From positions 264 to 64,263 of the forward strand of contig JBBRXC010000001.1 in the NCBI GenBank assembly GCA_038248745.1: a stretch of DNA of 64,000 nt, written 5' to 3'. Made by a program: the position numbers and the translations under genes. This DNA comes from Peptostreptococcales bacterium (GTDB lineage: Bacteria; Bacillota; Clostridia; Peptostreptococcales; Anaerovoracaceae). Of this stretch, positions 2,905 to 63,330 are shown piece after piece (the first letter of the stretch is position 1; each line of letters starts with the position of its first letter). The notes beneath the pieces were generated by a model. The model did not search any database and had not been told where the DNA came from. It was given only the letters and a program-made list of their open reading frames with translations.

Positions 2905-4422
2905 CTACTTCGCATATTTTTTTGCAATTGCTTCGGCTATTTTGATACCATCTACTGCTGCAGAAGTGATCCCGCCTGAATAACCGGCTCCTTCTCCACA
3001 GGGATAAATTCCTTTTATTGTCCCTTGGAAATCCTCATTTCTTTCAATTCTTACTGGAGAAGAACTCCTTGTTTCCACCGCACTTAATACGGCATCTGGG
3101 GTATCAAAACCTCTAAGCTTTCTTCCCATAAATGGAACAGCCTCTAAGATGGACGCTATTGCAAAATCTGGAAGTGATGCTCTCACACCAACGCCGCCCC
3201 CCTTATTTTTAATAAACTCTCCAAGAGAACATTTCGGTGCCTTGTATCTTTCACCAGCCACCTTGAATGCTAATTTTTCATATTTCTCCTGAAAATAAAT
3301 TCCTGCAAGTGGATCTTCAGATTCAAAGTCTTCAGTTCTCACGTCCACCAAAAGACCACTGTTTGCATTTTTAGCGTCTCTGGCATTGTTGCTCATGCCA
3401 TTTATTACTACAGTGCCTTCACTGGAAGATGTTACAATAACTTCTCCACCAGGACACATACAGAAGGTGTAAACGCCTCTTCCATTTTTACATTGATGCG
3501 ACAGTTTATATTCTGCTGCCCCAAGTCCTTCAACGTCTCCATACTGGGATTTGTTGATCAATGTCTGCAGGTGTTCGATTCTTACCCCGATGGAAAATGG
3601 TTTCTGAGACATTTTCAATCCCAGCTGATTTAAATATTTAAAGGTATCCCTAGCACTGTGACCAATGGCCAAAATCAGGGTTTCTGTTTCTATCACTTCA
3701 TTGTTATTGACTTCTACTGCATATACTTCTCCGTTTGCCACTTTTACTCCGGTTACTTTTGACTCAAATCTTATTTCTCCACCCAGGCTTATGATTTTTT
3801 TCCTAAGATTTACCACAACACCCCTAAGCAGATCTGTTCCAATATGCGGTTTTTGTTTGTATAGAATTTCTTCTCCACTGCCTGCTTTTGCAAATTCGTT
3901 CAGCACTTTTCCGATTCTCTTATCTTTGATCTGCGTTGTAAGCTTGCCGTCTGAAAATGTTCCTGCTCCTCCTTCACCAAATTGAGGATTTGATTCTGAA
4001 TCTAAAATTCCATCGTTCCATAAATTTTCCACATCTGTTATTCTTTGATCCATGGCTTTTCCACGCTCTAGCACAAGGGGTTTATATCCCATCTCAGCAA
4101 GAATTAAAGCAGAAAAAATTCCAGCAGGTCCAAACCCAACAATAACAAGTCTGTTCTTCATCTCCTCTGTTCCCTTTTCAACATATTCATATTCCATGGA
4201 TTTTGGTTGATCCAGTTTCAATTCAATTTCTGGATTGTCAATTGAAAAGTCAACACTGTAAACAAATTTAATATCACCCTTGTCTCTGGCATCGATAGAT
4301 TCCTTCACAATTCTATATTCTGTAATCTGAAGCTCCGGTTTTCCTAATTTGCTGATAATCCTGGCAGGAATATTACTTTTATCCTCATCAATATTTAATT
4401 TTATTTCGTGAATTCTATACAT
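2905..4422 (-). CDS. FAD-dependent oxidoreductase (COG2509-type, function unknown)
   Basis: 505 aa. Rossmann dinucleotide motif VIVGFGPAGIFSALILAEMGYKPLVLERG after a roughly 90-aa N-terminal domain, plus a C-terminal GEGAGYSGGI motif. Confidence 0.7.
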   Translation of the reverse strand: MYRIHEIKLNIDEDKSNIPARIISKLGKPELQITEYRIVKESIDARDKGDIKFVYSVDFSIDNPEIELKLDQPKSMEYEYVEKGTEEMKNRLVIVGFGPAGIFSALILAEMGYKPLVLERGKAMDQRITDVENLWNDGILDSESNPQFGEGGAGTFSDGKLTTQIKDKRIGKVLNEFAKAGSGEEILYKQKPHIGTDLLRGVVVNLRKKIISLGGEIRFESKVTGVKVANGEVYAVEVNNNEVIETETLILAIGHSARDTFKYLNQLGLKMSQKPFSIGVRIEHLQTLINKSQYGDVEGLGAAEYKLSHQCKNGRGVYTFCMCPGGEVIVTSSSEGTVVINGMSNNARDAKNANSGLLVDVRTEDFESEDPLAGIYFQEKYEKLAFKVAGERYKAPKCSLGEFIKNKGGGVGVRASLPDFAIASILEAVPFMGRKLRGFDTPDAVLSAVETRSSSPVRIERNEDFQGTIKGIYPCGEGAGYSGGITSAAVDGIKIAEAIAKKYAK

Positions 4423-31444: not shown

Positions 31445-32803
31445 ATGCTGAATATGAGCGACATCATGGAAACGATTACCATGATTCAAGATGAAAACTT
31501 AGATATTAGAACGATTACGATGGGAATTTCTTTGATTGACTGTTGCGATAGTGACATAGATAAATCATGTGAAAAGGTGTACAACAAAATCTATACCTAT
31601 GCAAAAGACCTTGTGAAAACAGGGGAAGATATTGAAAAGCAGTATGGCATTCCTATAGTAAATAAAAGAATTTCCGTCACTCCTATAGCCATGTTGGCTG
31701 GTGCCTCTGGTGGGGACCCAGTAAAATATGCAAAAACCCTTGATAGGGCAGCTCGCGACGTAGGGGTAAACTTTATTGGTGGGTACTCGGCGCTTGTACA
31801 AAAGGGATTTTCTCCCGGAGACAAAGCCCTTATAGAATCAATCCCCAGAGCTCTTTCTGAAACTGAATTTGTTTGTTCCTCAGTGAATATCGGGTCAACC
31901 AGAGCCGGCATCAATATGGATGCTGTTAAATTGATGGGACAAATAGTCATAGATGCTGCCGAACTTACCAAAGACAGGCAATGCATCGGAGCTGCCAAGC
32001 TGGTGGTATTTTGCAATGCAGTTGAAGACAATCCATTCATGGCCGGCGCCTTTCATGGTCCTGGTGAAGCTGACTGTGTTTTAAACATTGGTGTCTCCGG
32101 TCCAGGAGTCGTTCGTGCCGCACTTGCTAAAATGCCTGAAGATGCAAGTTTAGACGAAATAGCGGATATGATTAAACGAACTGCCTTTAAAATCACCCGA
32201 ATGGGTCAACTTGTGGGCATTGAAGCCTCCGCTAGATTAGGCGTTCCTTTCGGTATTATTGACTTGTCCCTTGCTCCTACACCAGCTGTTGGAGACTCGG
32301 TTGCTCACATCTTGGAAGAAATCGGTCTTGACATGTGTGGTGGCCACGGGACAACCGCAGCCCTTGCCATGTTAAATGATGCAGTAAAAAAAGGCGGCGT
32401 GATGGCAACCTCCCACGTAGGCGGATTGTCAGGTGCTTTTATTCCAGTAACTGAAGATGCTGGAATGATCGCTGCAGCAAGAGCGGGAAATCTTACGATA
32501 GAAAAGCTTGAAGCGATGACTGCTGTTTGTTCAGTAGGTTTAGATATGATTGTCATTCCTGGGGATACAACTGCTGCTGTTATATCTGGTATCATAGCAG
32601 ATGAAGCCGCAATAGGGATGGTCAATTCCAAAACTACCGCTGTAAGGCTTATTCCCGCCATTGGCCTTGCCGAGGGAGAAGAGCTGGACTTTGGTGGCCT
32701 GCTTGGAAACGGTCCTGTCATGAAGCTAAATACCACCTCTCCTGCTAAAATGATTAACCGCGGTGGCAGGATTCCTGCTCCACTTCAAAGCTTAAAAAAC
32801 TAA
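31445..32803 (+). CDS. PFL-like UPF0210/DUF711 family protein
   Basis: 452 aa. [11 protein letters not shown] start and the conserved partnership with the upstream ACT gene. Confidence 0.8.
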
Positions 32804-33122
32804 ACCCAATATAAGCAGCCGACATTGGGTTTGTTAAAATATTAACCCCTGAAGTTGGTGGGTTTTTGGAAAATTAACCTGTGGATAAGTTTTTTAGTGC
32901 CAAGTAAATTATTCCTGTCATAAAATAAACTGAGCATGGGATGAATGTGTTTATGTCACATTCATCCCATGCTCAGTCTTTATACGTTTAATTGATTAAG
33001 TTTGTTTCCGTACCTTTGATTAGTTATCCACAGGTTCCCTGTGAATAACGGAAATTTGAAATGACTAATTGCAAGGGATAAAAAAAAAACGAAGCCCAAT
33101 GTCGGATGCTTATAATGGGCTT
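32802..33122. repeat. 320-bp composite palindromic (MITE-like) element bounded by inverted copies of the 31-nt REP-like unit
   Basis: Left end AAACCCAATATAAGCAGCCGACATTGGGTTT (27/31 match to the inverted unit). Right end is a perfect AAGCCCAATGTCGGATGCTTATAATGGGCTT (33092-33122). Internal mirrored CCTGTGGATAA (32878-32888) and TTATCCACAGG (33024-33034), with a central 21-bp hairpin. Confidence 0.8.
32929..32977. terminator. Strong bidirectional hairpin between convergent genes
   Basis: ACTGAGCATGGGATGAATGTG / CACATTCATCCCATGCTCAGT, a perfect 21-bp stem with a 7-nt loop, flanked by AAATAA and CTTTAT. Confidence 0.7.
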
Positions 33123-51089: not shown

Positions 51090-52238
51090 TCAATACCTGT
51101 ATATTGCGGCGATGCCTGTTGTACTAGGCATTATTTCTTTTGGTAATACAACAACCTTGCCTTTCTTTTTCATGACAAATTCAGCCAGATCATCCAATAC
51201 ATCATCTGTGTCTGGTTTTTCTAGGTCGCCTAGACGAACCGTCCCCGTTTGTAGATCAACTTTACCGGGAATTATTTTTTCTGCTTCGAGGAAAAGGGTT
51301 TCAACCCTGTTTTCTACGGCAGCTAAGGCGACTTTTAACAGGTCATCTGAACCCAAATCATTGGCTTTCGCATTACTATATTTTTCAGCTAAACTCTTAT
51401 TTTTTGCCGAATAAATAGGTTCAACCAATTCCCAAACCTTAACTTTCAGTTCATCCATGGTGAATGCATTATAGGCCCCTTTAATTCCTTCCTTCATCAG
51501 GTAAGGATTATTTGTTATTTTCATAAATTCACTGTGATGCTCTTTTAACGAAACTAAGACAAGTGGCAATTTAGAAGTTTTCGAATGATTCTCCAGAACA
51601 TATTTGTCTACATATCGGAAAAACTTCTCCAAATCTTTTTCCAACTCATTATCCTTTGTCCCATATCCAAAGGGAACAGCACCAGCCCCCGTCCCGGCGA
51701 ATTTGCTATGATTCGTTGAAGGTTCTGTATGCTGATTTCCTAAAACCTCTTCAAGGGTTGTTGGCACACCCTGCATTATTTTTATTTTTTTAATGCCATA
51801 TTTATTCCCTTCATAAAGATTGAATTCCGTACCGCTTAATCCCAGCAACTGATATTTTTCAACGGATTGAAATATCTTAAGAAGAGGCTTGATATGAAGC
51901 GAATCTGCTACGATTGCCAGATTCTCTACAGTTTCATCTAATCTGTATATGATGCATTTATTCAGGTTTGCAAGAACAGCCATTCCTTCCAGCGAATAAT
52001 TCCAAATATTCTTGTCCTCTTCTATCTGCTGAAACATTTCCATAATAGAACTAATATCTTTTTTAGAATACTTTTGTTTTAAGGAAGCTTCAACATCTCT
52101 TATCAAGTTTTTAAAAAGTGTAACATCCTGTTTATTTCCCTTTGAATCCCTATGAGTCGATTGATAAAGAGATACAAATGGTCCTTCTTCTTCAAAAATC
52201 ATCGCATTTGGGAATTCATTTACAATTTCATATTTCAT
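51090..52238 (-). CDS. eRF1/Pelota-like (baeRF-family-like) protein, function unknown
   Basis: 382 aa. The N-terminal VSLYQSTHR and the C-terminal GIAAIYRY resemble, respectively, the characteristic N-terminal motif of bacterial baeRF proteins and the C-terminal motif of the eRF1/Pelota domain. Recognised from memory only. Confidence 0.45.
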   Translation of the reverse strand: MKYEIVNEFPNAMIFEEEGPFVSLYQSTHRDSKGNKQDVTLFKNLIRDVEASLKQKYSKKDISSIMEMFQQIEEDKNIWNYSLEGMAVLANLNKCIIYRLDETVENLAIVADSLHIKPLLKIFQSVEKYQLLGLSGTEFNLYEGNKYGIKKIKIMQGVPTTLEEVLGNQHTEPSTNHSKFAGTGAGAVPFGYGTKDNELEKDLEKFFRYVDKYVLENHSKTSKLPLVLVSLKEHHSEFMKITNNPYLMKEGIKGAYNAFTMDELKVKVWELVEPIYSAKNKSLAEKYSNAKANDLGSDDLLKVALAAVENRVETLFLEAEKIIPGKVDLQTGTVRLGDLEKPDTDDVLDDLAEFVMKKKGKVVVLPKEIMPSTTGIAAIYRY

Positions 52239-52646: not shown

Positions 52647-53711
52647 TTATTCTTCTGTATCTATTTCTTCATTATCTGTTTCAATTGCTTCAGGTGAAGT
52701 ACGGTTCTGTATTGCATTCTGATTTCTTACTTTTTCCATTACTTTCGAATCTGTATCTTCATCCATATCTAAATCTGTATCATCATTGGCCTTGACTTTC
52801 CCCTTATCATTGCCATTGTTGTTTATATTGCCATTACCATTACCGTTATTGCCATTACCGTTATTGCCATTTCCGTTAATGTCTGAATCAACATCTATTC
52901 CTTTTGGTGTCATGCCCTTTTGTTTGAATTTGTTTGCCTTGATCTGGGCCATGATGTCTTTTACAGAACCTTCAAACCAAATAGCGGCATCCGAAGTGAC
53001 GGTAGTACCAGCAAGCTCTGGATCACTAGCATATAACTTTTGAACTAAATTCAATTTTCCAGGTGTTACTTTATATCCTAAATCTTTGCTTAATTGAGCT
53101 GCAGCTTCTACTCTCTTAGCACCTATTGCTGTTACAACGTCTTCTAAATCCAAATCAGTGTCGATTTCTTTGCCTGTTTCTTCTGCAACCATTGTTGCCA
53201 GTTTGTTTTTTATGGCAAGTATTAGTTTTTCTTCATTTTTTGCTGAAGTGGCGTTTACCCCAATGATGATACTGTCTTCATACCATGTACCATTTTTAAG
53301 ATAATTTTTTTCCTTTAATGCTAAAATTGTGTCTTCCAATACCTGATTAATGTTTTTCCCATTCCATTCAATCGTTTGAAGAATGTCAACAGCGTCTAAG
53401 TTACTTTCTTCTGATATTACCTTGTTAAATGAATTAATTGAATAAGTTATTGAAGGATTTACATCCAAACTTACATGTGCCACTGGTGTATTATAAGCAT
53501 AGGCAGTACCGCCTCCCAGCAGAATAACCAGTGATGCTGCGATTCCCCCGGCAATGTTTCGATATTTCTTACTCATCTTTTTCATTGTATTTCTCTCCAT
53601 TTCTATGGTTTGACCAATTTTATAATTTTTGTTTAAAATTTCTTTTACTCTGCCGTCATCAGATAAGGCAACTGCTTTGTTTTTTCTCGTTTCAAGTATA
53701 ACTGCTTTCAT
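52647..53711 (-). CDS. rsgI: Anti-sigma-I factor RsgI-like protein
   Basis: ATG at 53711 lies 9 nt after AAAGGAG. The N-terminus MKAVILETRKNKAVALSDDGRVKEI matches the RsgI_N pattern. Single TM, extracytoplasmic domain, then an NGNGNNGNGNNGNGNGN low-complexity region and an acidic tail. Confidence 0.7.
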   Translation of the reverse strand: MKAVILETRKNKAVALSDDGRVKEILNKNYKIGQTIEMERNTMKKMSKKYRNIAGGIAASLVILLGGGTAYAYNTPVAHVSLDVNPSITYSINSFNKVISEESNLDAVDILQTIEWNGKNINQVLEDTILALKEKNYLKNGTWYEDSIIIGVNATSAKNEEKLILAIKNKLATMVAEETGKEIDTDLDLEDVVTAIGAKRVEAAAQLSKDLGYKVTPGKLNLVQKLYASDPELAGTTVTSDAAIWFEGSVKDIMAQIKANKFKQKGMTPKGIDVDSDINGNGNNGNGNNGNGNGNINNNGNDKGKVKANDDTDLDMDEDTDSKVMEKVRNQNAIQNRTSPEAIETDNEEIDTEE

Positions 53712-53716
53712 CGGTT

Positions 53717-54424
53717 TCATCTCCTTTTCATTGAAATTACATAAGGTGTCAAGCATGGATAATCACCTTTTAGTATTTCTGTGACTGCTATTATATACTT
53801 TCGATGACGTTCCAGTATTTTTCGGGGTACTCCCGTATTTTTCTCAATGTTTTTTAATGGCAGCAGACCGCTGTTTGCCATTTCACAAAAAATAAGATCA
53901 TTATCTGTAATATAAATGACCACTTCTTTGCAGGATTCTTTTGTTTTTTTTGCTTTAGGGGAACAAGCCGCTAGATCAAAAAAAGAAAAGCCATATTTTT
54001 TCAAAGACTCCCCAAGCATTCCGATTTCATCAGCAATTTTTTCTTCAAAATTTTCATTTCCCGATAACTGTTCCGCATCATTCCTATCTTTGTTTATAAT
54101 GATATCTGAAGGATTCATTGGAACGATATGCTCTGTTTGCTTCTCTTTTCGCAGTCCATCAATAAGCCTTCTCCTAATCACCAATTTGGCAAAACTCAGG
54201 AAACTGCCCTTATCAAATGAATAAGACTGCACCGCTTCAACAAATGCTTCCAGCGCCAGCAATTCTTCTTCACTTCCACTATTAATATGCTTTGAAAGAG
54301 TTTTACCGGCACATGCCCTGATATAAGGCATTTCCTGAAGAATAAACTGTTCCAAAATCTTTTCATCCCCTACGGCTGAAATAGCCGTTTCATCAATCAG
54401 TCTTGATCTTTTCTCGTCATCCAT
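53717..54424 (-). CDS. sigI: RNA polymerase sigma factor SigI-like
   Basis: 235 aa. Sigma-70 region 2-like segment followed by the SigI-type C-terminal domain. Immediately upstream of an RsgI_N-type gene. Confidence 0.7.
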   Translation of the reverse strand: MDDEKRSRLIDETAISAVGDEKILEQFILQEMPYIRACAGKTLSKHINSGSEEELLALEAFVEAVQSYSFDKGSFLSFAKLVIRRRLIDGLRKEKQTEHIVPMNPSDIIINKDRNDAEQLSGNENFEEKIADEIGMLGESLKKYGFSFFDLAACSPKAKKTKESCKEVVIYITDNDLIFCEMANSGLLPLKNIEKNTGVPRKILERHRKYIIAVTEILKGDYPCLTPYVISMKRR

Positions 54425-57444: not shown

Positions 57445-58638
57445 TTATGCCTCCTTTTTAATCCATTCAATACAGGGGTCTCTATTCTCCAGGTAATCTA
57501 TGATGCTTACACTGAAATTTATTTCCGGATAAAATGAATCCTGTACATTTCCTTCTATTAAATAATAATACTCGGTAGAATAACGTACTGAAAGCCCTGA
57601 TTCCCTAAGTTTGAAATAATTCACTTCCCCGTAGCAATTAGGTTTACCCCCTGTTGCTTCTCCTATAAATATTGCTTTTGTTTTGAATTTGAGCAAATAT
57701 ACATTCAAGAGTGCTGAAGAGAACGTATCTCTACCAACAACAACAAATATTTTAAAAGCTTGATTTGAATTTTCATTTCTCTCTCTTTGAAACTCAGATA
57801 GCCATTCAATAAAAGGTCTGAACAGTTCTGAATCCCCCCCATTATTGTTGCGATAGTCCAAAACAATATTTTTGATTTTTAAATCCTTTTCAAGATTTTC
57901 CTCTAAATTCCCGATGAAATTTTCTACTGAAAGGGTTTCCATCTCTTTGCATTTTTTGTAATTCACATAAAGAATGGATTCTTTCTCGATTTGTTCTTCC
58001 CAGTAATATAAATCTAGGTTTTTTCGAAAAAGCGGCAGCTTCTCAGCCTGATCGCCACTGGTTTCTTGCCTTTTATTTTCTTTATGTGCCTCCATTTTCC
58101 AGTCCTTATATTTCATGGATGGCATTACCAGACTACTTTGTTTACCATCCAGACTTTCAATCCTAAGTTGAACTTTTTCCACACTGCTGGCAATCCCTAA
58201 ACCATATAAAATATCAGTACAAACCAGCAGTTCAGGGAGCTGTGATTTGACAAACTGCATATTCTCATGAGAAATCATCTCAGTGAATTTTTCTATCACC
58301 TCTGTCATTGGCACTCCGTCGATTTCAATGATTTTATGATGCAATGCTGTCTCAAATTCTGGCATCGTACCAATTATATAAATACCTTCCTCAAACCAGA
58401 AAATTTCTATTGGCAGCATATTATTTTTTGGCAGTTCTAGCGCTGTATGGGCATCTCCAGCCAAAGCAATTAATTTAGAAATTTCAACAACAATAGTATA
58501 CACATTCATATTCTTTTTATTCTGTATTAATTTTTCAACCTTATCATAAAATTCTTCTTTTGAAATGTCATGGAAAAAATTATTGTGAAGCTTTGGAAGA
58601 TCTTCTGCCAGCTGGTTTATATCTGACTGCCAATTCAT
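57445..58638 (-). CDS. Peptidase S41-like protein without a signal peptide
   Basis: ATG at 58638 lies 1 nt after the upstream stop; the track start at 58752 is unlikely. LDYRNNNGGD and GRDTFSSALL resemble the S41 oxyanion and catalytic-Ser regions. Confidence 0.55.
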   Translation of the reverse strand: MNWQSDINQLAEDLPKLHNNFFHDISKEEFYDKVEKLIQNKKNMNVYTIVVEISKLIALAGDAHTALELPKNNMLPIEIFWFEEGIYIIGTMPEFETALHHKIIEIDGVPMTEVIEKFTEMISHENMQFVKSQLPELLVCTDILYGLGIASSVEKVQLRIESLDGKQSSLVMPSMKYKDWKMEAHKENKRQETSGDQAEKLPLFRKNLDLYYWEEQIEKESILYVNYKKCKEMETLSVENFIGNLEENLEKDLKIKNIVLDYRNNNGGDSELFRPFIEWLSEFQRERNENSNQAFKIFVVVGRDTFSSALLNVYLLKFKTKAIFIGEATGGKPNCYGEVNYFKLRESGLSVRYSTEYYYLIEGNVQDSFYPEINFSVSIIDYLENRDPCIEWIKKEA

Positions 58639-58639
58639 A

Positions 58640-60292
58640 TTATTTACCCCTAGTCTTATTTTGATCTTTGCTAGCAGCATAAAACTTATGTCCTCCGGAA
58701 AGGTTATAAACGTTTTTAAACCCGCGAGCAAGCAGAATATTTTGTGCGGCATTGCCCGTAGTGCCCTTATTACAGTATGCTATGGTCATTTTTTTAGGGT
58801 CGAGGGCCTCTATTTTTTCTCTCAAATCTTCATGGGATAATTGAATGGCGTCATCAACATGGCCTTTTTTCAAATAATCATCCTGGCTCCTAGCATCAAT
58901 AATCTGTTTTTCCTCTGTAGTATTTCTAAGTTCCTCTGCTGTGATTAGTTTTCTTTCATGGCTGATGGCATTATCAAGAATCATCCCGGTGTAATGAACA
59001 GGATCTTTTGTTGTTGAAAATGGTGGCGCATAGGCCAAATCAATATGAAACAGCTCATCAACGGTCGCCTTATAGGTAATAAGTGTGGCAAAAACGTCTA
59101 TTCTTTTATCAACCCCGTTCATTCCAATAATCTGAACACCCAGCAATCGTTTAGTTTTTCTATCTGCAATGGCTTTAATCACCATTTCTTCTCCATGAAA
59201 ATAGCTGGGCTTGTCCAGTTTAATATTATGACTTATTTCAATATCGTACCCTTCCATTTTGGAATCTTTTTCAGAAAGTCCTGTACTAGCCACTGTCAAA
59301 TCGAATAATTTAAAAATTCCTGTTCCCAGATTTCCTTTATAGGTTAAATCTCCTCCGGTAAGGGAATCTCCAGCGATTCTTCCTGTTTTATTCGCTGTTG
59401 ATCCAAGCGGTCTGTATACAGGTTTTCCAGTTATAATAGAAAATGTCTCAATACAATCACCGCAAGCATATATATTTTCAATGTTTGTCTGCATTCTTTC
59501 ATTCACTTTGATACCACCGGTAATACCTAAGGTTATTCCCGCGCTTAAAGCAAGCGCCGTATTTGGGCGCACCCCAGTCGACATGATTACCATATCAGCC
59601 TCGAGCTTTTGTCCGTCACTCAGCAATACAGTGGTTTCATCTATTATCTGAATACTCCTTGACTTGAGTATCGAAACGCCTCTTTTGAGTAAATCATTTT
59701 CAAGAAATGTCGCCATATCCAGATCTAGATTAGGTGTAATTTTGTCAGCAACTTCAACTACAGTGACATTGATATTCAAGCCTGCTAAATTCTCAAGCAT
59801 TTCAAAACCGATAAATCCGGTTCCTGCAATAACAGCTATCTTCGGTCGCCTAATCTGTATAAATTCTCTGATGGCTATGGCATTTTGCACATTTCGCAGA
59901 AAGAATACATGGGACCTAGCAAGGCCTTCCACTGGTGGAATAAATGGCGATGCTCCCGTTGCAATGACCAGCTTATCATAATAATCCTGGAAGACTCTGC
60001 CCGTTGCCATTTCCTTCACTATTAACATATTACTCTCAGCGTTTATTTCCATTACCTCATACTCAGTTTTTACATCTATATCATATTTTTTCTTAAAAAA
60101 AGAAGCGTCTCTGGGCGTCAGTTCAGAGATATCTTCAACTTCTCCCCCAATATAATAAGGTAGGCCGCACCCTGAGTAGGATATGTCCTGGTCCTTTTCA
60201 TAAATAATTATTTCTGCAAAATCATCATTTCTCCTGGCCTTAGCGGCAGCAGAGGTACCCGCAGCAACAGCTCCTATAACAATGATCCTCAT
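58640..60292 (-). CDS. CoA-disulfide reductase/NADH oxidase-family flavoprotein with a C-terminal rhodanese domain
   Basis: 550 aa. VIGAVAAGTSAAAKA FAD motif, redox Cys in SYSGCGLPYY, second dinucleotide motif VIAGTGFIGFE, and a C-terminal rhodanese loop YCNKGTTG. Confidence 0.8.
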   Translation of the reverse strand: MRIIVIGAVAAGTSAAAKARRNDDFAEIIIYEKDQDISYSGCGLPYYIGGEVEDISELTPRDASFFKKKYDIDVKTEYEVMEINAESNMLIVKEMATGRVFQDYYDKLVIATGASPFIPPVEGLARSHVFFLRNVQNAIAIREFIQIRRPKIAVIAGTGFIGFEMLENLAGLNINVTVVEVADKITPNLDLDMATFLENDLLKRGVSILKSRSIQIIDETTVLLSDGQKLEADMVIMSTGVRPNTALALSAGITLGITGGIKVNERMQTNIENIYACGDCIETFSIITGKPVYRPLGSTANKTGRIAGDSLTGGDLTYKGNLGTGIFKLFDLTVASTGLSEKDSKMEGYDIEISHNIKLDKPSYFHGEEMVIKAIADRKTKRLLGVQIIGMNGVDKRIDVFATLITYKATVDELFHIDLAYAPPFSTTKDPVHYTGMILDNAISHERKLITAEELRNTTEEKQIIDARSQDDYLKKGHVDDAIQLSHEDLREKIEALDPKKMTIAYCNKGTTGNAAQNILLARGFKNVYNLSGGHKFYAASKDQNKTRGK

Positions 60293-61653
60293 AGTAACCT
60301 CTCCTCTATTCGCTTTGGTGCCACACTTTTATAAGCAGGTCTTATTATTTTGCCCTGATTAACCAGTTCTTCTATCCTATGAGCGCTCCATCCGACTATT
60401 CGCGAGACGGCAAATATTGGGGTGTACAATTCCATTGGTATATCCAGCATTTTATAAACAAGGCCCGAATAAAAGTCTACATTTGTGCTAACCCCTTTGT
60501 ATATTTTACTGGCTTCCCCAATAACTCTAGGGCCTATTTTTTCAACTTTTTCATATAGCAGAAACTCAGCCTCACAACCTTTTTCCTTTGCCAGCATTTC
60601 GGCAGAATTCTTTAAAATCACTGCGCGTGGATCAGAAATCGAATAAACTGCATGTCCAAATCCATAAATTAAACCCGTTTTGTCAAATGCCTCTTTTCGT
60701 AATACAGATCTCAAATAATTTGCGATCTCTTCCTCATCCTCCCAGTTTTTTACCTTTTCTTTCAACTCATCAAACATCATAACAACTTTATTATTAGCAC
60801 CACCATGTCGTGGGCCTTTTAATGAGCCAAGAGCAGCGGCGATAACAGAATAAGTATCTGTTGCAGAAGAAGTGGCCACATGAGTAATAAAGGATGAGTT
60901 GTTACCACCACCATGCTCCGCATGAAGAACAAGAGCTAAATCAAGAAGTTTAGCCTCGAGTTTGGTATATTGGCTGTCAGGCCTAAGCATATGCAGAAAA
61001 TTTTCTGCTGTACTAAGTCCAGGTAATGGTTTATGTATGGATAAACTTTCACGACAATGGTAATGCATAAATGACTGGTACCCATAAACGGCAAGCATTG
61101 GAAAGCAGGCAATAAGCTGTAAACTTTGCCTTAACACGTTTTCGATTGAAATATCATCTGCATCTTCATCCATACTATATAAAACTAAAACTGACCTGGC
61201 AAGCATATTAATCATGTCCTTACTTGGCGCCGTCATTATATTTTCTTTGACGAAAGTATCCGGCAATGTCCTATAGTCTGAAAGTAGTTGGTTAAATTCC
61301 ACCAATTCCTTTTCATTGGGTCTCTCTCCAAAAAGCAGTAAGTAAATGGTCTCTTCAAAGCCAAACCGATCCCCTTTCGTAAATCTCTCAACGATATCCT
61401 CAATTTCATATCCTCTGTAGCTAAGTTTGCCTCGAATGGAGACTCTTTCCCCATTGATATATTCATGGCCGACTGTATCTCCAATTTTAGTTAAACCTGC
61501 CAATACACCTACACCATTGATATCACGCAATCCCTTTTTTACATCATATAAGGTATAAAGATCTGGTTCAATCAAACTACTCTTAATCGAATTCTCTGTC
61601 AGTTTTTTTAGCAAATTTGCTTCATCACTGTCTTTTATAATTATATTATCCAT
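60289..61653 (-). CDS. gltA: Citrate synthase (Si-type, GltA/CitZ family)
   Basis: 454 aa. LHAEHGGGNNS, GPRHGGAN and GFGHAVY motifs. RBS GAGGAG. Confidence 0.88.
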   Translation of the reverse strand: MDNIIIKDSDEANLLKKLTENSIKSSLIEPDLYTLYDVKKGLRDINGVGVLAGLTKIGDTVGHEYINGERVSIRGKLSYRGYEIEDIVERFTKGDRFGFEETIYLLLFGERPNEKELVEFNQLLSDYRTLPDTFVKENIMTAPSKDMINMLARSVLVLYSMDEDADDISIENVLRQSLQLIACFPMLAVYGYQSFMHYHCRESLSIHKPLPGLSTAENFLHMLRPDSQYTKLEAKLLDLALVLHAEHGGGNNSSFITHVATSSATDTYSVIAAALGSLKGPRHGGANNKVVMMFDELKEKVKNWEDEEEIANYLRSVLRKEAFDKTGLIYGFGHAVYSISDPRAVILKNSAEMLAKEKGCEAEFLLYEKVEKIGPRVIGEASKIYKGVSTNVDFYSGLVYKMLDIPMELYTPIFAVSRIVGWSAHRIEELVNQGKIIRPAYKSVAPKRIEERLL

Positions 61654-61666
61654 TTAAATTCTCCTC

Positions 61667-61870
61667 ATTAAAAAGAAAACACCACAGAAAAAATTCTGCG
61701 GCAAATTGTATTTTGGGTTCACCAATAATTAAGTATAAAGCAATACTTAATCATACTCTTCCACCGCTTGCGAGATTAGCTGACGGATTCGGATTGAAAA
61801 GTTAATCCTACACAAATTTGTGATTCACCCCAAGAAATGGTTCTCCCGCTCCATAACTGGATTCAACGTA
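61667..61870 (-). promoter_or_regulatory. ydaO/yuaA-type (c-di-AMP) riboswitch-like leader with a terminator expression platform
   Basis: Minus strand: GGAGCGGGAGAACCA...GGGGTGAATC...TAGGATT(hairpin)AATCCGAATCCGTCAGCTAATCTCGCAAGCG, then CCGCAGA-N6-TCTGTGG plus TGTTTTCTTTTT just before the RBS. Confidence 0.75.
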
Positions 61871-61902
61871 ATAATATATTAACACAAATAAACCCCGTGA
61901 GC

Positions 61903-61965
61903 AAGCCCATTATAAGCATCCGACATTGGGCTTCAAGCCCAATGTCGGATGCTTATAATGGGCTT
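61903..61965. repeat. REPIN-like doublet: two perfect inverted 31-nt REP-like units separated by 1 nt
   Basis: AAGCCCATTATAAGCATCCGACATTGGGCTT (61903-61933), C, AAGCCCAATGTCGGATGCTTATAATGGGCTT (61935-61965). Together they form a 63-nt perfect palindrome. Confidence 0.9.
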
Positions 61966-62000
61966 GGTTTTTGCAAAACCCTTGCAATCACTCACAAAAA

Positions 62001-62035
62001 ATATAGTTGTCCACAGTGCCTGTGGACAACTATAT
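62001..62035 (-). terminator. Intrinsic terminator of htrA (stem carries TTGTCCACA / TGTGGACAA)
   Basis: ATATAGTTGTCCACAG / CTGTGGACAACTATAT perfect 16-bp stem with a 3-nt loop, followed on the minus strand by TTTTTTGTG. Confidence 0.75.
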
Positions 62036-62106
62036 TCTACTAAATTGCTCGTTAAATGCTTCTTTATTTATATGTTTGTTTTTTATTCAATACTTTATCT
62101 AATTAT

Positions 62107-63330
62107 TTAATTTGGCATTTCTCCAAGTTCTAAATTGATTGTTTCCCTATTGTTATTTCCCTTCCTGATTATTTCAAGCTTGATCGTATCTCCTGATTTA
62201 TATTTATAAAGATCATTGATCAGCTGGGTCATTGTCTCTATTTCCTTCTTTTCGATGGCAACGATAATATCACCTTCCTTGATTCCTGCTTTCGCAGCCG
62301 GCGATTCTATGAAAATCTGATTAATATATACTCCTTTTTCTGCTCCCAGTTTTACCTCTGGGTACATCTGCTGATATTCCGCCACGCTACTCCCCTTGAT
62401 GCCAATATATGCTCTATGAAATTCACCATTTGTTTCAATAGCCTCAATAATTGGTTTAGCTGTATTGATTGGAATAGCAAAACCAAGTCCCTCAGCACTC
62501 TGTGCTTTTGCAGAATTAATGCCAATCACATTCCCTTCACTGTTTAAAAGAGGTCCGCCACTGTTTCCTGAATTGATGGAAGCGTCCGTCTGAATTAAAT
62601 TATCCATGGTTGTCTGAGATTGTCCATTTGCAATCGTTATAGATCTATTTAAACCACTAATTACTCCCTGCGTCACGCTACTTTCGAAAGACATGCCTAA
62701 TGGGTTCCCTATAGCTACCGCAAAAGAGCCAACCTTAACTTCATTAGAATCACCAAGCGTTGCAGCAGTAAGTTTGTCTGCGGTTATTTTAACGATAGCA
62801 AGATCAATACTTTTATCACTCCATAAAACTGTTCCTTTCACCTCTCTGCCATCAGCAAGTTTAATTTTAAGAGTATCTGCAGAACCGCCTTCCACAACAT
62901 GCGAATTTGTAAGAATATAACCCTTCTTGTCGACAATGATGCCAGTTCCAACGCCTGATACTTCACCATCTTGGTTTCCAAAAATACTTTGATAGGTAAC
63001 CTTCGTTGTGGTGCTGATCCCTACTACAGAAGGAATCACTTTTTCTGCAACTGCCTCTGCTGAACTAACATTATCATTTGGCGTAATAGTAATTTTATTG
63101 TACCCCATGGTTTGATTTGCAAAATAAAGTGCTGCCATTCCGCCACCGAAACCAGCTCCGGCAGCCAAAAGTACAATCAAAAATATTGCAACAATTTTTT
63201 TGGTGATATTATTTTTTCTATTATTTAAATTTATATTTTCTTTTTCAAACACTATTGGATCCTCATCCTTTACATCATCTTTTATATCTTCTTTTGCATC
63301 ATCTCGTACATCATCTTTTATATCTTCCAT
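62107..63330 (-). CDS. htrA: HtrA/DegP-family serine protease with a PDZ domain
   Basis: 407 aa. Acidic repeat N-terminus, TM segment, trypsin-like domain (TNSHVV, GNSGGPL) and a C-terminal PDZ domain. Confidence 0.9.
   Translation of the reverse strand: MEDIKDDVRDDAKEDIKDDVKDEDPIVFEKENINLNNRKNNITKKIVAIFLIVLLAAGAGFGGGMAALYFANQTMGYNKITITPNDNVSSAEAVAEKVIPSVVGISTTTKVTYQSIFGNQDGEVSGVGTGIIVDKKGYILTNSHVVEGGSADTLKIKLADGREVKGTVLWSDKSIDLAIVKITADKLTAATLGDSNEVKVGSFAVAIGNPLGMSFESSVTQGVISGLNRSITIANGQSQTTMDNLIQTDASINSGNSGGPLLNSEGNVIGINSAKAQSAEGLGFAIPINTAKPIIEAIETNGEFHRAYIGIKGSSVAEYQQMYPEVKLGAEKGVYINQIFIESPAAKAGIKEGDIIVAIEKKEIETMTQLINDLYKYKSGDTIKLEIIRKGNNNRETINLELGEMPN

Follow-up and report, generated by a model that had tools for sequence, protein, structure and literature searches.

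The DNA analyzed here, a window of 64,000 nt from contig JBBRXC010000001.1 of a Peptostreptococcales bacterium, encodes on its minus strand a citrate synthase of 454 aa (61653..60289) preceded by a leader that almost certainly contains a riboswitch for cyclic di-AMP (c-di-AMP). When the whole 64-kb window was searched with Rfam cmscan against all 4227 families, the sole match above its gathering threshold was the c-di-AMP (ydaO/yuaA) riboswitch RF00379 at 61878..61751 on the minus strand (102.8 bits, gathering threshold 38, E-value 2.5e-23). The match spans model positions 1-134 of 134, and the alignment flagged 0 non-canonical pairs. Each departure from the highly conserved (upper-case) consensus positions falls in a helix and is compensated by its partner, with G-C replaced by A-U or G-U. 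The original prediction, made from the letters alone, had placed this leader in the ydaO/yuaA class and proposed a covariance-model search, and the full-length match bears it out. The minus-strand strings that it quoted, GGAGCGGGAGAACCA, GGGGTGAATC and TAGGATT..AATCCGAATCCGTCAGCTAATCTCGCAAGCG, were all located in the leader, as were the CCGCAGAA/TTCTGTGG hairpin with GTTTTCTTTTT, the ribosome-binding site (RBS) GAGGAG (61666..61661) and the start codon ATG (61653..61651). The span that it had marked, 61667-61870, takes in the functional leader, and the Rfam match reaches 8 nt further 5′ into unstructured positions. Its further reading, a termination OFF switch on a citrate synthase operon, agrees with the layout: an intrinsic terminator follows the aptamer, the first gene is citrate synthase, and the next gene begins on its stop codon.

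The aptamer (61751..61878) holds the pseudo-twofold core motifs GAGCGGGAGAACCA, GGGGUGAAUC and CCGAAUCCGUCAGCUAAUCUCG, and its helix P1 is formed by CGUU (61868-61865) with AGCG (61768-61765). The core nucleotides GAGCGGGGGAaCC, GGGGUGAAU, UAGGG and CCCGAACCCGuCAGCUAACCuCG are present in the window copy, and the core positions are invariant or covarying across 13 other copies linked to citrate synthase. CUUUU in the P6 loop (61801-61797) is complementary to AAGAG in the 3′ tail (61760-61756), a potential pseudoknot in the pairing register of this riboswitch class; since both segments are invariant in the alignment, covariation neither supports nor contradicts it. Between the aptamer and the terminator lies a spacer hairpin (AUGAUUAAGUAU/AUACUUAAUUAU, 61725..61754), an inverted repeat with 12 nt arms that are 92% complementary, which also appears in the leader folds.

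Covariation among homologous leaders supports helices P1-P7 of RF00379. Seven citrate-synthase-linked aptamers were aligned with MAFFT; 98.4% of the pair cells were standard and changes on both sides were found in 16 of the 28 pairs. None of 500 shuffles reached the observed values, and when the 3′ partners were slid by 1-3 columns, 27-52% were paired. From a structure-blind MAFFT alignment of 14 copies, RNAalifold recovered the class architecture, with compensatory changes in 15/27 pairs. A covariance model of our own (R1), built from the first seven citrate-synthase-linked copies, scored the window aptamer at 137.9 bits. An alignment of orthologous leaders had been suggested as a check in the original prediction, and the leaders of other genomes do hold the same riboswitch and covary.

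The intrinsic terminator lies at 61670..61703 (minus strand), with the stem GCCGCAGAA/UUCUGUGGU, the loop UUUU and then GUUUUCUUUUU. A pattern scan, independent of the Rfam search, reported a hairpin of 10 pairs at 61703..61680 followed by TTTTCTTTTT, and the hairpin folded alone gave -13.0 kcal/mol. A candidate antiterminator strand, GCGGUGG (61761..61767), is predicted to pair with UUGCCGC (61704..61698), which is the 5′ (left) arm of the terminator, while its GCG (three nt) is in common with the 3′ strand of P1. The antiterminator state and the aptamer-plus-terminator state, each forced, both folded at -49.0 kcal/mol, and such equality is expected of a switch tipped by its ligand. GCGGTGG and CCGC are conserved in two related loci, L084 and L085, and the changes in the partner (UUGCCGC, UCACCGC, CGCCGC) keep the pairing; the terminator is conserved in both loci and in the leader remnant of L081. 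We infer the exact identity of the antiterminator from such modeling. The U-tract (UUUUCUUUU) is also complementary to the RBS region (GAGGAGAAU; window 61661-61680) and is paired with it in the minimum-free-energy fold, by which translation of read-through transcripts may possibly be damped independently of ligand.

The product of 61653..60289 is assigned to the NF010635/PRK14032 subfamily of citrate synthases, with 377.5 bits to Pfam PF00285 (cutoff 27) and 691.3 bits to NCBIfam NF010635 (cutoff 426). The signature motifs LHAEHGGGN, GFGHAVY..DPR, NVDFYSG, AHR and RP are present, and their residues align with those of solved citrate synthases. H244/H247 (LHAEHGGGN), H334 (GFGHAVY), D341-P342-R343, D393 (NVDFYSG), H425-R426 and R438 do not vary within the family alignments; the catalytic His/His/Asp and the substrate-binding Arg are presumably those known from the pig and archaeal enzymes. 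The second operon gene (58640..60292, minus strand) has its start on the stop codon of citrate synthase (ATGA) and encodes a flavoprotein, a pyridine-nucleotide-disulfide oxidoreductase, resembling coenzyme A (CoA)-disulfide/persulfide reductases with a C-terminal rhodanese domain: Pfam Pyr_redox_2, Pyr_redox_dim and Rhodanese domains were found, TIGR03385 scored 444 bits, under its cutoff of 578.8, and the closest solved structures, 3nta, 3icr and 8a56, are CoA-disulfide/persulfide reductases with a rhodanese domain. Among the loci examined, this gene pair is confined to the window and the close relatives L081-L083. An S41-peptidase-like open reading frame (ORF) at 57445..58752 on the same strand is a possible third gene of uncertain operon membership. 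As called, it overlaps the 3′ end of the reductase gene by about 110 nt, and so its true start probably lies further downstream; L081 has the same gene order including this ORF. A pattern scan found no terminator-like site between the three genes. Upstream, the gene for an HtrA-type protease (63330..62107) ends with its own terminator hairpin (62036..62000), and thus the riboswitch heads a separate transcription unit. No c-di-AMP, K+ or glutamate genes were found in a survey of the rest of the window.

The association with citrate synthase recurs. Orthologs with their flanks were taken from 80 species-representative genomes, from 8 closer-relative loci obtained by exact protein look-up, and from 80 metagenome contigs; the metagenome orthologs are among the matches listed, all at 59-66% identity and none from the window's own clade (clade A). 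Another 13 citrate synthase orthologs, from at least four lineages, have RF00379 on the same strand in their upstream region, the metagenome part being again among the matches listed. The copies in genomes are those of L085 (111.8 bits), L007 (107.3 bits, from the cultured Desulfosporosinus paludis SB140), L005 (103.5 bits), L084 (100.1 bits), L088 (99.8 bits) and L064 (85.7 bits), and those on metagenome contigs are L132 (107.1 bits), L092 (99.8 bits), L151 (95.3 bits), L107 (93.7 bits), L094 (91.5 bits), L121 (53.5 bits) and L090 (45.5 bits). The R1 model, run over all 169 sources, recovered exactly the copies found with Rfam and none weaker. A fuzzy-regex pre-screen of the 80 genome loci had returned only 3 candidates; it was superseded by Rfam and R1, which gave no extra weak matches.

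When the first 89 citrate synthases were placed in a neighbor-joining tree, carriers turned up in at least three separate places: L084, L085 and L088 in the clade of the window, L005 and L007 in a Desulfitobacteriaceae group, and L064 alone. By similarity of leader and terminator, L092 and L090 go with the Desulfitobacteriaceae group and L132, L151, L107 and L094 with L064, while the L121 leader is of a further, GC-richer type. The riboswitch occurs in none of roughly 60 Lachnospiraceae and Oscillospiraceae-type loci, and L011 (Desulfosporosinus sp.) has neither aptamer nor terminator in its 190 nt of upstream sequence. The genes 3′ of citrate synthase vary by lineage and include those for CoA-disulfide reductase, a GGDEF protein, Usp, a MerR regulator and an ANKH-like membrane protein, or a convergent gene. 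Citrate synthase is the sole gene common to these transcription units, which argues that it is the selected target.

Two observations concern the surroundings of these orthologs. A gene with a GGDEF domain (diguanylate cyclase-like) lies about 100-160 nt 3′ of citrate synthase on the same strand in three clade-A relatives, L084 (5513-6658), L085 (5534-6688) and L086 (5592-6725); in L084 and L085 it could be co-transcribed under the c-di-AMP riboswitch, which would amount to cross-talk between second messengers. In two metagenome-assembled genomes of Peptococcaceae, other RNA elements were found upstream of the citrate synthase orthologs, a lysine riboswitch in L071 (1374-1554, 96.7 bits) and an L21 leader in L016 (1082-1163, 40.3 bits). 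Their distance of 2.5-3 kb is too great for them to regulate citrate synthase.

Downstream of each of the 14 aptamers comes a hairpin of -10 to -16 kcal/mol with a U-tract, and in each lineage there is an alternative pairing that uses nucleotides of the aptamer 3′ end or core. The conserved CAGCUAAC and GGGUU(AC) of the aptamer are the partners of GUUAGCUG plus (U)AACCC in L005, L007 and L092, and for the L064 group the pairing is between the tail GGGGUAUA and UAUACUCC of the terminator. Several of these leaders place the terminator 100-400 nt upstream of the RBS, and the mechanism that they share is therefore termination and not RBS occlusion.

A sensor of another kind occupies the same leader position at L087, the citrate synthase of which is a member of the window clade (70% identity). 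Here a Na+ riboswitch (RF03071, DUF1646 motif) was matched at 664-715, upstream of citrate synthase, with 56.5 bits against a threshold of 40.5. A hairpin at about 703-739, followed by UUUUUG, has GGGGUGGGAAGU in common with the 3′ end of the aptamer, and in Na+ riboswitches such an overlap of the terminator's left arm with the aptamer 3′ end is the ON layout (White et al., 2022, PMC9337991). Beyond this site (664-745), citrate synthase is followed by an overlapping ORF of 417 aa with no Pfam match. That two ionic or osmotic sensors of the same sign are found in one ortholog group suggests that the output of citrate synthase matters for the response. Citrate synthase might be a recurrent node of an RNA-based ionic/osmotic stress regulon in anaerobic Firmicutes, in which c-di-AMP riboswitches (OFF) and, in at least one sister lineage, a Na+ riboswitch (ON) are interchangeable and tune the supply of 2-oxoglutarate/glutamate, a generalization that in our judgment could equally turn out right or wrong.

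The riboswitch has also been lost. L081-L083, whose citrate synthases are 89-91% identical to that of the window and which have the same order of htrA, citrate synthase and reductase genes, are without the aptamer according to Rfam. In L081 (3880-4003), the promoter region, a P1/P2 stub (TTGAATCCGGTTGTGG) and a perfect terminator are kept and the aptamer core is deleted, whereas in the corresponding region of L082 and L083 (3880-4003) nearly the whole leader is gone and the -10 box almost abuts the RBS. These loci had been expected to be further examples of the riboswitch; with the aptamer deleted, they are evidence of loss and not support. Given the intact terminator before citrate synthase in L081, one may ask how that gene is expressed. 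Decay is seen as well in L090, whose degraded aptamer scores 45.5 bits and has several broken pairs. In L090 (149-1183) and L092 (57-1183), a conserved ORF of 192 aa lies on the opposite strand between the riboswitch with its terminator and citrate synthase. It encodes a predicted membrane protein beginning MSWNIKKWNWSG, and on read-through the riboswitch transcript would be antisense to it.

From the architecture and by analogy with known systems, the window element is very probably a transcription-termination OFF switch on the citrate synthase operon; ligand binding and the sign of regulation in vivo would follow from the same analogy. At high c-di-AMP, in K+-replete cells free of osmotic stress, two ligands would lock the pseudo-twofold aptamer including P1 and the 3′ tail, the GCCGCAGAA/UUCUGUGGU hairpin and the U-tract would form, and RNA polymerase would stop before citrate synthase. 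At low c-di-AMP, under K+ limitation or hyperosmotic stress, the freed 3′ strand of P1 and the tail GCGGUGG would pair with UUGCCGC, and the resulting antitermination would allow read-through into citrate synthase and the CoA-disulfide-reductase-like gene. The purpose would be to pass more carbon, as oxaloacetate and acetyl-CoA, to 2-oxoglutarate and glutamate. Glutamate is the main counter-ion of K+ and a precursor of osmolytes. We give this glutamate/osmotic rationale for the control of citrate synthase an even chance of being correct.

The rationale has counterparts in the literature. c-di-AMP accumulates when K+ is plentiful and signals the absence of osmotic distress (PMC9337991; PMC8822347, PMC8549634), and c-di-AMP riboswitches repress genes for K+ uptake and the osmotic response. 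In Listeria and Lactococcus, c-di-AMP inhibits pyruvate carboxylase allosterically, and in B. subtilis the enzyme is activated by apo-DarB; the stated purpose of this control is to match the supply of 2-oxoglutarate/glutamate to the availability of K+ (PMC8822347, PMC8549634). Moreover, mutations in citZ suppress the essentiality of c-di-AMP in Listeria (PMC8822347, PMC8549634), and so both statements about Listeria in the original prediction, on pyruvate carboxylase and on citrate synthase, are found in the literature.

Several points weigh against the proposed switch or its rationale. Ligand binding, termination and the transcription start in this organism are predictions only. The antiterminator proposed for the window is short, with a duplex of -7.8 kcal/mol and 7 bp, of which three are G-U. 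When the leader is folded without constraints, the minimum-free-energy structure (-57.0 kcal/mol) corresponds to neither functional state; it is a non-aptamer fold and tells nothing on switching. The association is a minority trait, seen in 3/80 species-representative and 7/80 metagenomic orthologs (the latter among the matches listed), and its loss in the three closest relatives means that control by the riboswitch, while useful, is dispensable. The case for the Na+ riboswitch comes from one locus, L087. No co-regulated gene for aconitase, isocitrate dehydrogenase or glutamate synthesis was found in the loci examined. Citrate synthase releases CoA, and beyond this the role of the reductase partner is unexplained, which is a weak point. 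Finally, the NF010635 subfamily is without a close solved structure, the best Protein Data Bank match of the enzyme being 185.7 bits. We know of no characterized representative of the subfamily; substrate specificity, and with it the citrate-forming activity of the product of 61653..60289, is therefore assumed.

The last point leads to the possibility that the enzyme is not a true citrate synthase but a 2-methylcitrate synthase or another acyl-CoA condensing enzyme, in which case the link through the tricarboxylic acid (TCA) pathway to glutamate would be wrong. Relatives are annotated as 'citrate/2-methylcitrate synthase', NF010635 is a 'subfamily' model and not an equivalog, and the closest solved structures score no higher than the value given above (<=185.7 bits). 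We nevertheless regard this as unlikely, since the NF010635 score is 691 against a cutoff of 426, the enzyme stays well under the cutoffs of the 2-methylcitrate synthase models, prpB/prpD-type neighbors of a methylcitrate cycle are absent from every locus examined, and the family is widespread in Clostridia as a single citrate-synthase-like gene. The loss of aptamers bears on another explanation, namely that the riboswitch is in decay or already a relic without function, citrate synthase in effect being expressed constitutively or driven by a different promoter. Such loss is common, with deletion in the three closest relatives and degradation in L090, where pairs are broken. The window aptamer, by contrast, scores as high as any (102.8 bits), has no non-canonical pair and compensates its deviations from the consensus; its terminator and candidate antiterminator are both undamaged and are conserved in L084 and L085 as well, and the gap from the terminator to the RBS, only about 4 nt, yielded no alternative promoter. 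A relic is thus very unlikely.

That same short gap, together with the pairing of the U-tract UUUUCUUUU with the RBS region GAGGAGAAU in the minimum-free-energy fold, would suit a switch acting mainly on translation by RBS occlusion, and an ON switch may also be considered in place of a termination OFF switch. This pairing uses no aptamer nucleotides, however, and is not ligand-dependent by itself. In all 14 leaders a canonical terminator stands separate from the aptamer, the layout that gave OFF switching experimentally in Dehalobacter (PMC9337991), and the terminators placed 100-400 nt before the RBS in several of them exclude occlusion as the shared mechanism. A translational or ON switch is accordingly quite improbable in our view. 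It is hardly credible, lastly, that the citrate-synthase-linked aptamers are a specificity variant for a ligand other than c-di-AMP, as occurs within the ykkC class. Citrate synthase is indeed atypical against the described c-di-AMP regulon, but the window and the 13 other copies, except the degraded L090, keep every highly conserved unpaired core position of RF00379, the scores of the intact copies (85-112 bits) are typical of the class, and the aptamers of different lineages have no common distinctive substitution relative to the consensus. A c-di-AMP-responsive termination OFF switch remains the reading that we prefer.

Set beside known systems, the RNA belongs to a well-studied class, in which it is an ordinary, high-scoring case, and its structure and platform hold nothing new. 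The B. subtilis ydaO (kimA) and ktrAB riboswitches (RF00379; cited as Nelson et al., 2013) are alike in aptamer class, pseudo-twofold core and potential pseudoknot, in the OFF layout of aptamer followed by terminator, and in reading c-di-AMP as a signal of K+ and osmotic status; they control K+ uptake, whereas the window switch precedes citrate synthase and a CoA-disulfide-reductase-like gene. A closer parallel is offered by the tandem Na+/c-di-AMP riboswitches on ablA in Dehalobacter sp. CF, where the target is likewise a biosynthetic enzyme and not a transporter and the c-di-AMP riboswitch has the same antiterminator design as is proposed for the window (PMC9337991). Na+ and c-di-AMP riboswitches cooperate on the osmolyte-biosynthesis genes ablA, dapB and eam (White et al., 2022, PMC9337991), and serve the same physiological response through targets that feed osmolyte production. 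The riboswitches of that study are arranged in tandem, while those described here are found one at a time, at the same place in the leader, in different but related genomes (the window, L084, L085 and L088 versus L087). The control of pyruvate carboxylase in Listeria and Lactococcus and through DarB has the same sign and presumed purpose, in that high c-di-AMP restricts the entry of carbon, but acts allosterically or by protein-protein contact (PMC8822347, PMC8549634), whereas the window element would act on the next enzyme of the pathway by attenuation of transcription. The citZ suppressors tie citrate synthase genetically to c-di-AMP essentiality (PMC8822347, PMC8549634).

In reviews and regulon surveys, the targets of c-di-AMP riboswitches are K+ and amino-acid transporters, osmotic-shock genes and cell-wall enzymes, and citrate synthase is therefore an atypical target, as the original prediction had remarked. 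The typical gene context, which does not define the class, is thus missing at the window locus and has no bearing on class membership. Citrate synthase is absent as a target from the text and the searched supplements of White et al., 2022 (PMC9337991), and no report of it as a target of a c-di-AMP or Na+ riboswitch was found in the full texts and supplements searched, although the supplementary gene lists of Nelson 2013 and Block 2010 could contain it. It is a noteworthy and apparently unreported target, and not a new mechanism.

To our knowledge, no bacterial second messenger other than c-di-AMP is essential. Genetic work has traced this essentiality to the homeostasis of K+, osmolytes and glutamate/TCA metabolism, and the known direct links of c-di-AMP to central metabolism, pyruvate carboxylase and DarB, are all at the protein level. 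A riboswitch on citrate synthase would add a link at the level of RNA and bring in strict anaerobes whose TCA pathway is branched; if so, low c-di-AMP or high Na+ would lead to more citrate synthase and more glutamate. Desulfosporosinus paludis SB140 is one cultured carrier. For annotators, the c-di-AMP regulon would take in metabolic enzymes and not only transporters and cell-wall hydrolases.

Two candidate sigma-A promoters for the leader lie within 61876..61936 on the minus strand. A consensus scan gave TTGAAG-16-TATAAT at 61936..61909 with 10/12 matches; matches of this quality are no commoner in the region than in shuffled sequence, and the candidate lies within a palindromic repeat, in its right arm. 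A second candidate was recognized by eye, TTGCTC-17-TAATAT (61904..61876), which has a TG upstream of it and would put the transcription start about 1-3 nt ahead of P1. Good -35/-10 pairs were likewise seen by eye just 5′ of the aptamer in other citrate-synthase-linked leaders.

The palindrome is a perfect one of 32+1+32 nt (61902-61966) directly upstream of the riboswitch. Its arm AAGCCCAATGTCGGATGCTTATAATGGGCTT holds the TATAAT box and is a dispersed intergenic repeat, found also at 714-745, about 32800-32832 and 33092-33122 of the window and at 1695-1719, 3816-3840 and 3854-3878 of L081. The 18-nt core of the arm has 5 copies in the window at up to 3 mismatches, against 0.04 expected by chance, and the sister genome L081 has three copies of an exact 25-nt stretch of the arm, which is absent from the other 167 loci. 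A GTTATCCACAGG..CCTGTGGATAAC hairpin and AATGACTAATTGCAAGGG often stand ahead of the arm. The palindrome may be an element like a repetitive extragenic palindrome or a miniature inverted-repeat transposable element that supplies or overlaps the leader promoter.

Elsewhere in the window, and unrelated to the riboswitch, a gene of baeRF family 3/6/7 (bacterial archaeo-eukaryotic release-factor-like) stands beside a gene for an RsgI-like anti-sigma factor (51090-52238 and 52647-54424). The RsgI-like gene overlaps an ORF of 235 aa, which may encode its sigma factor.

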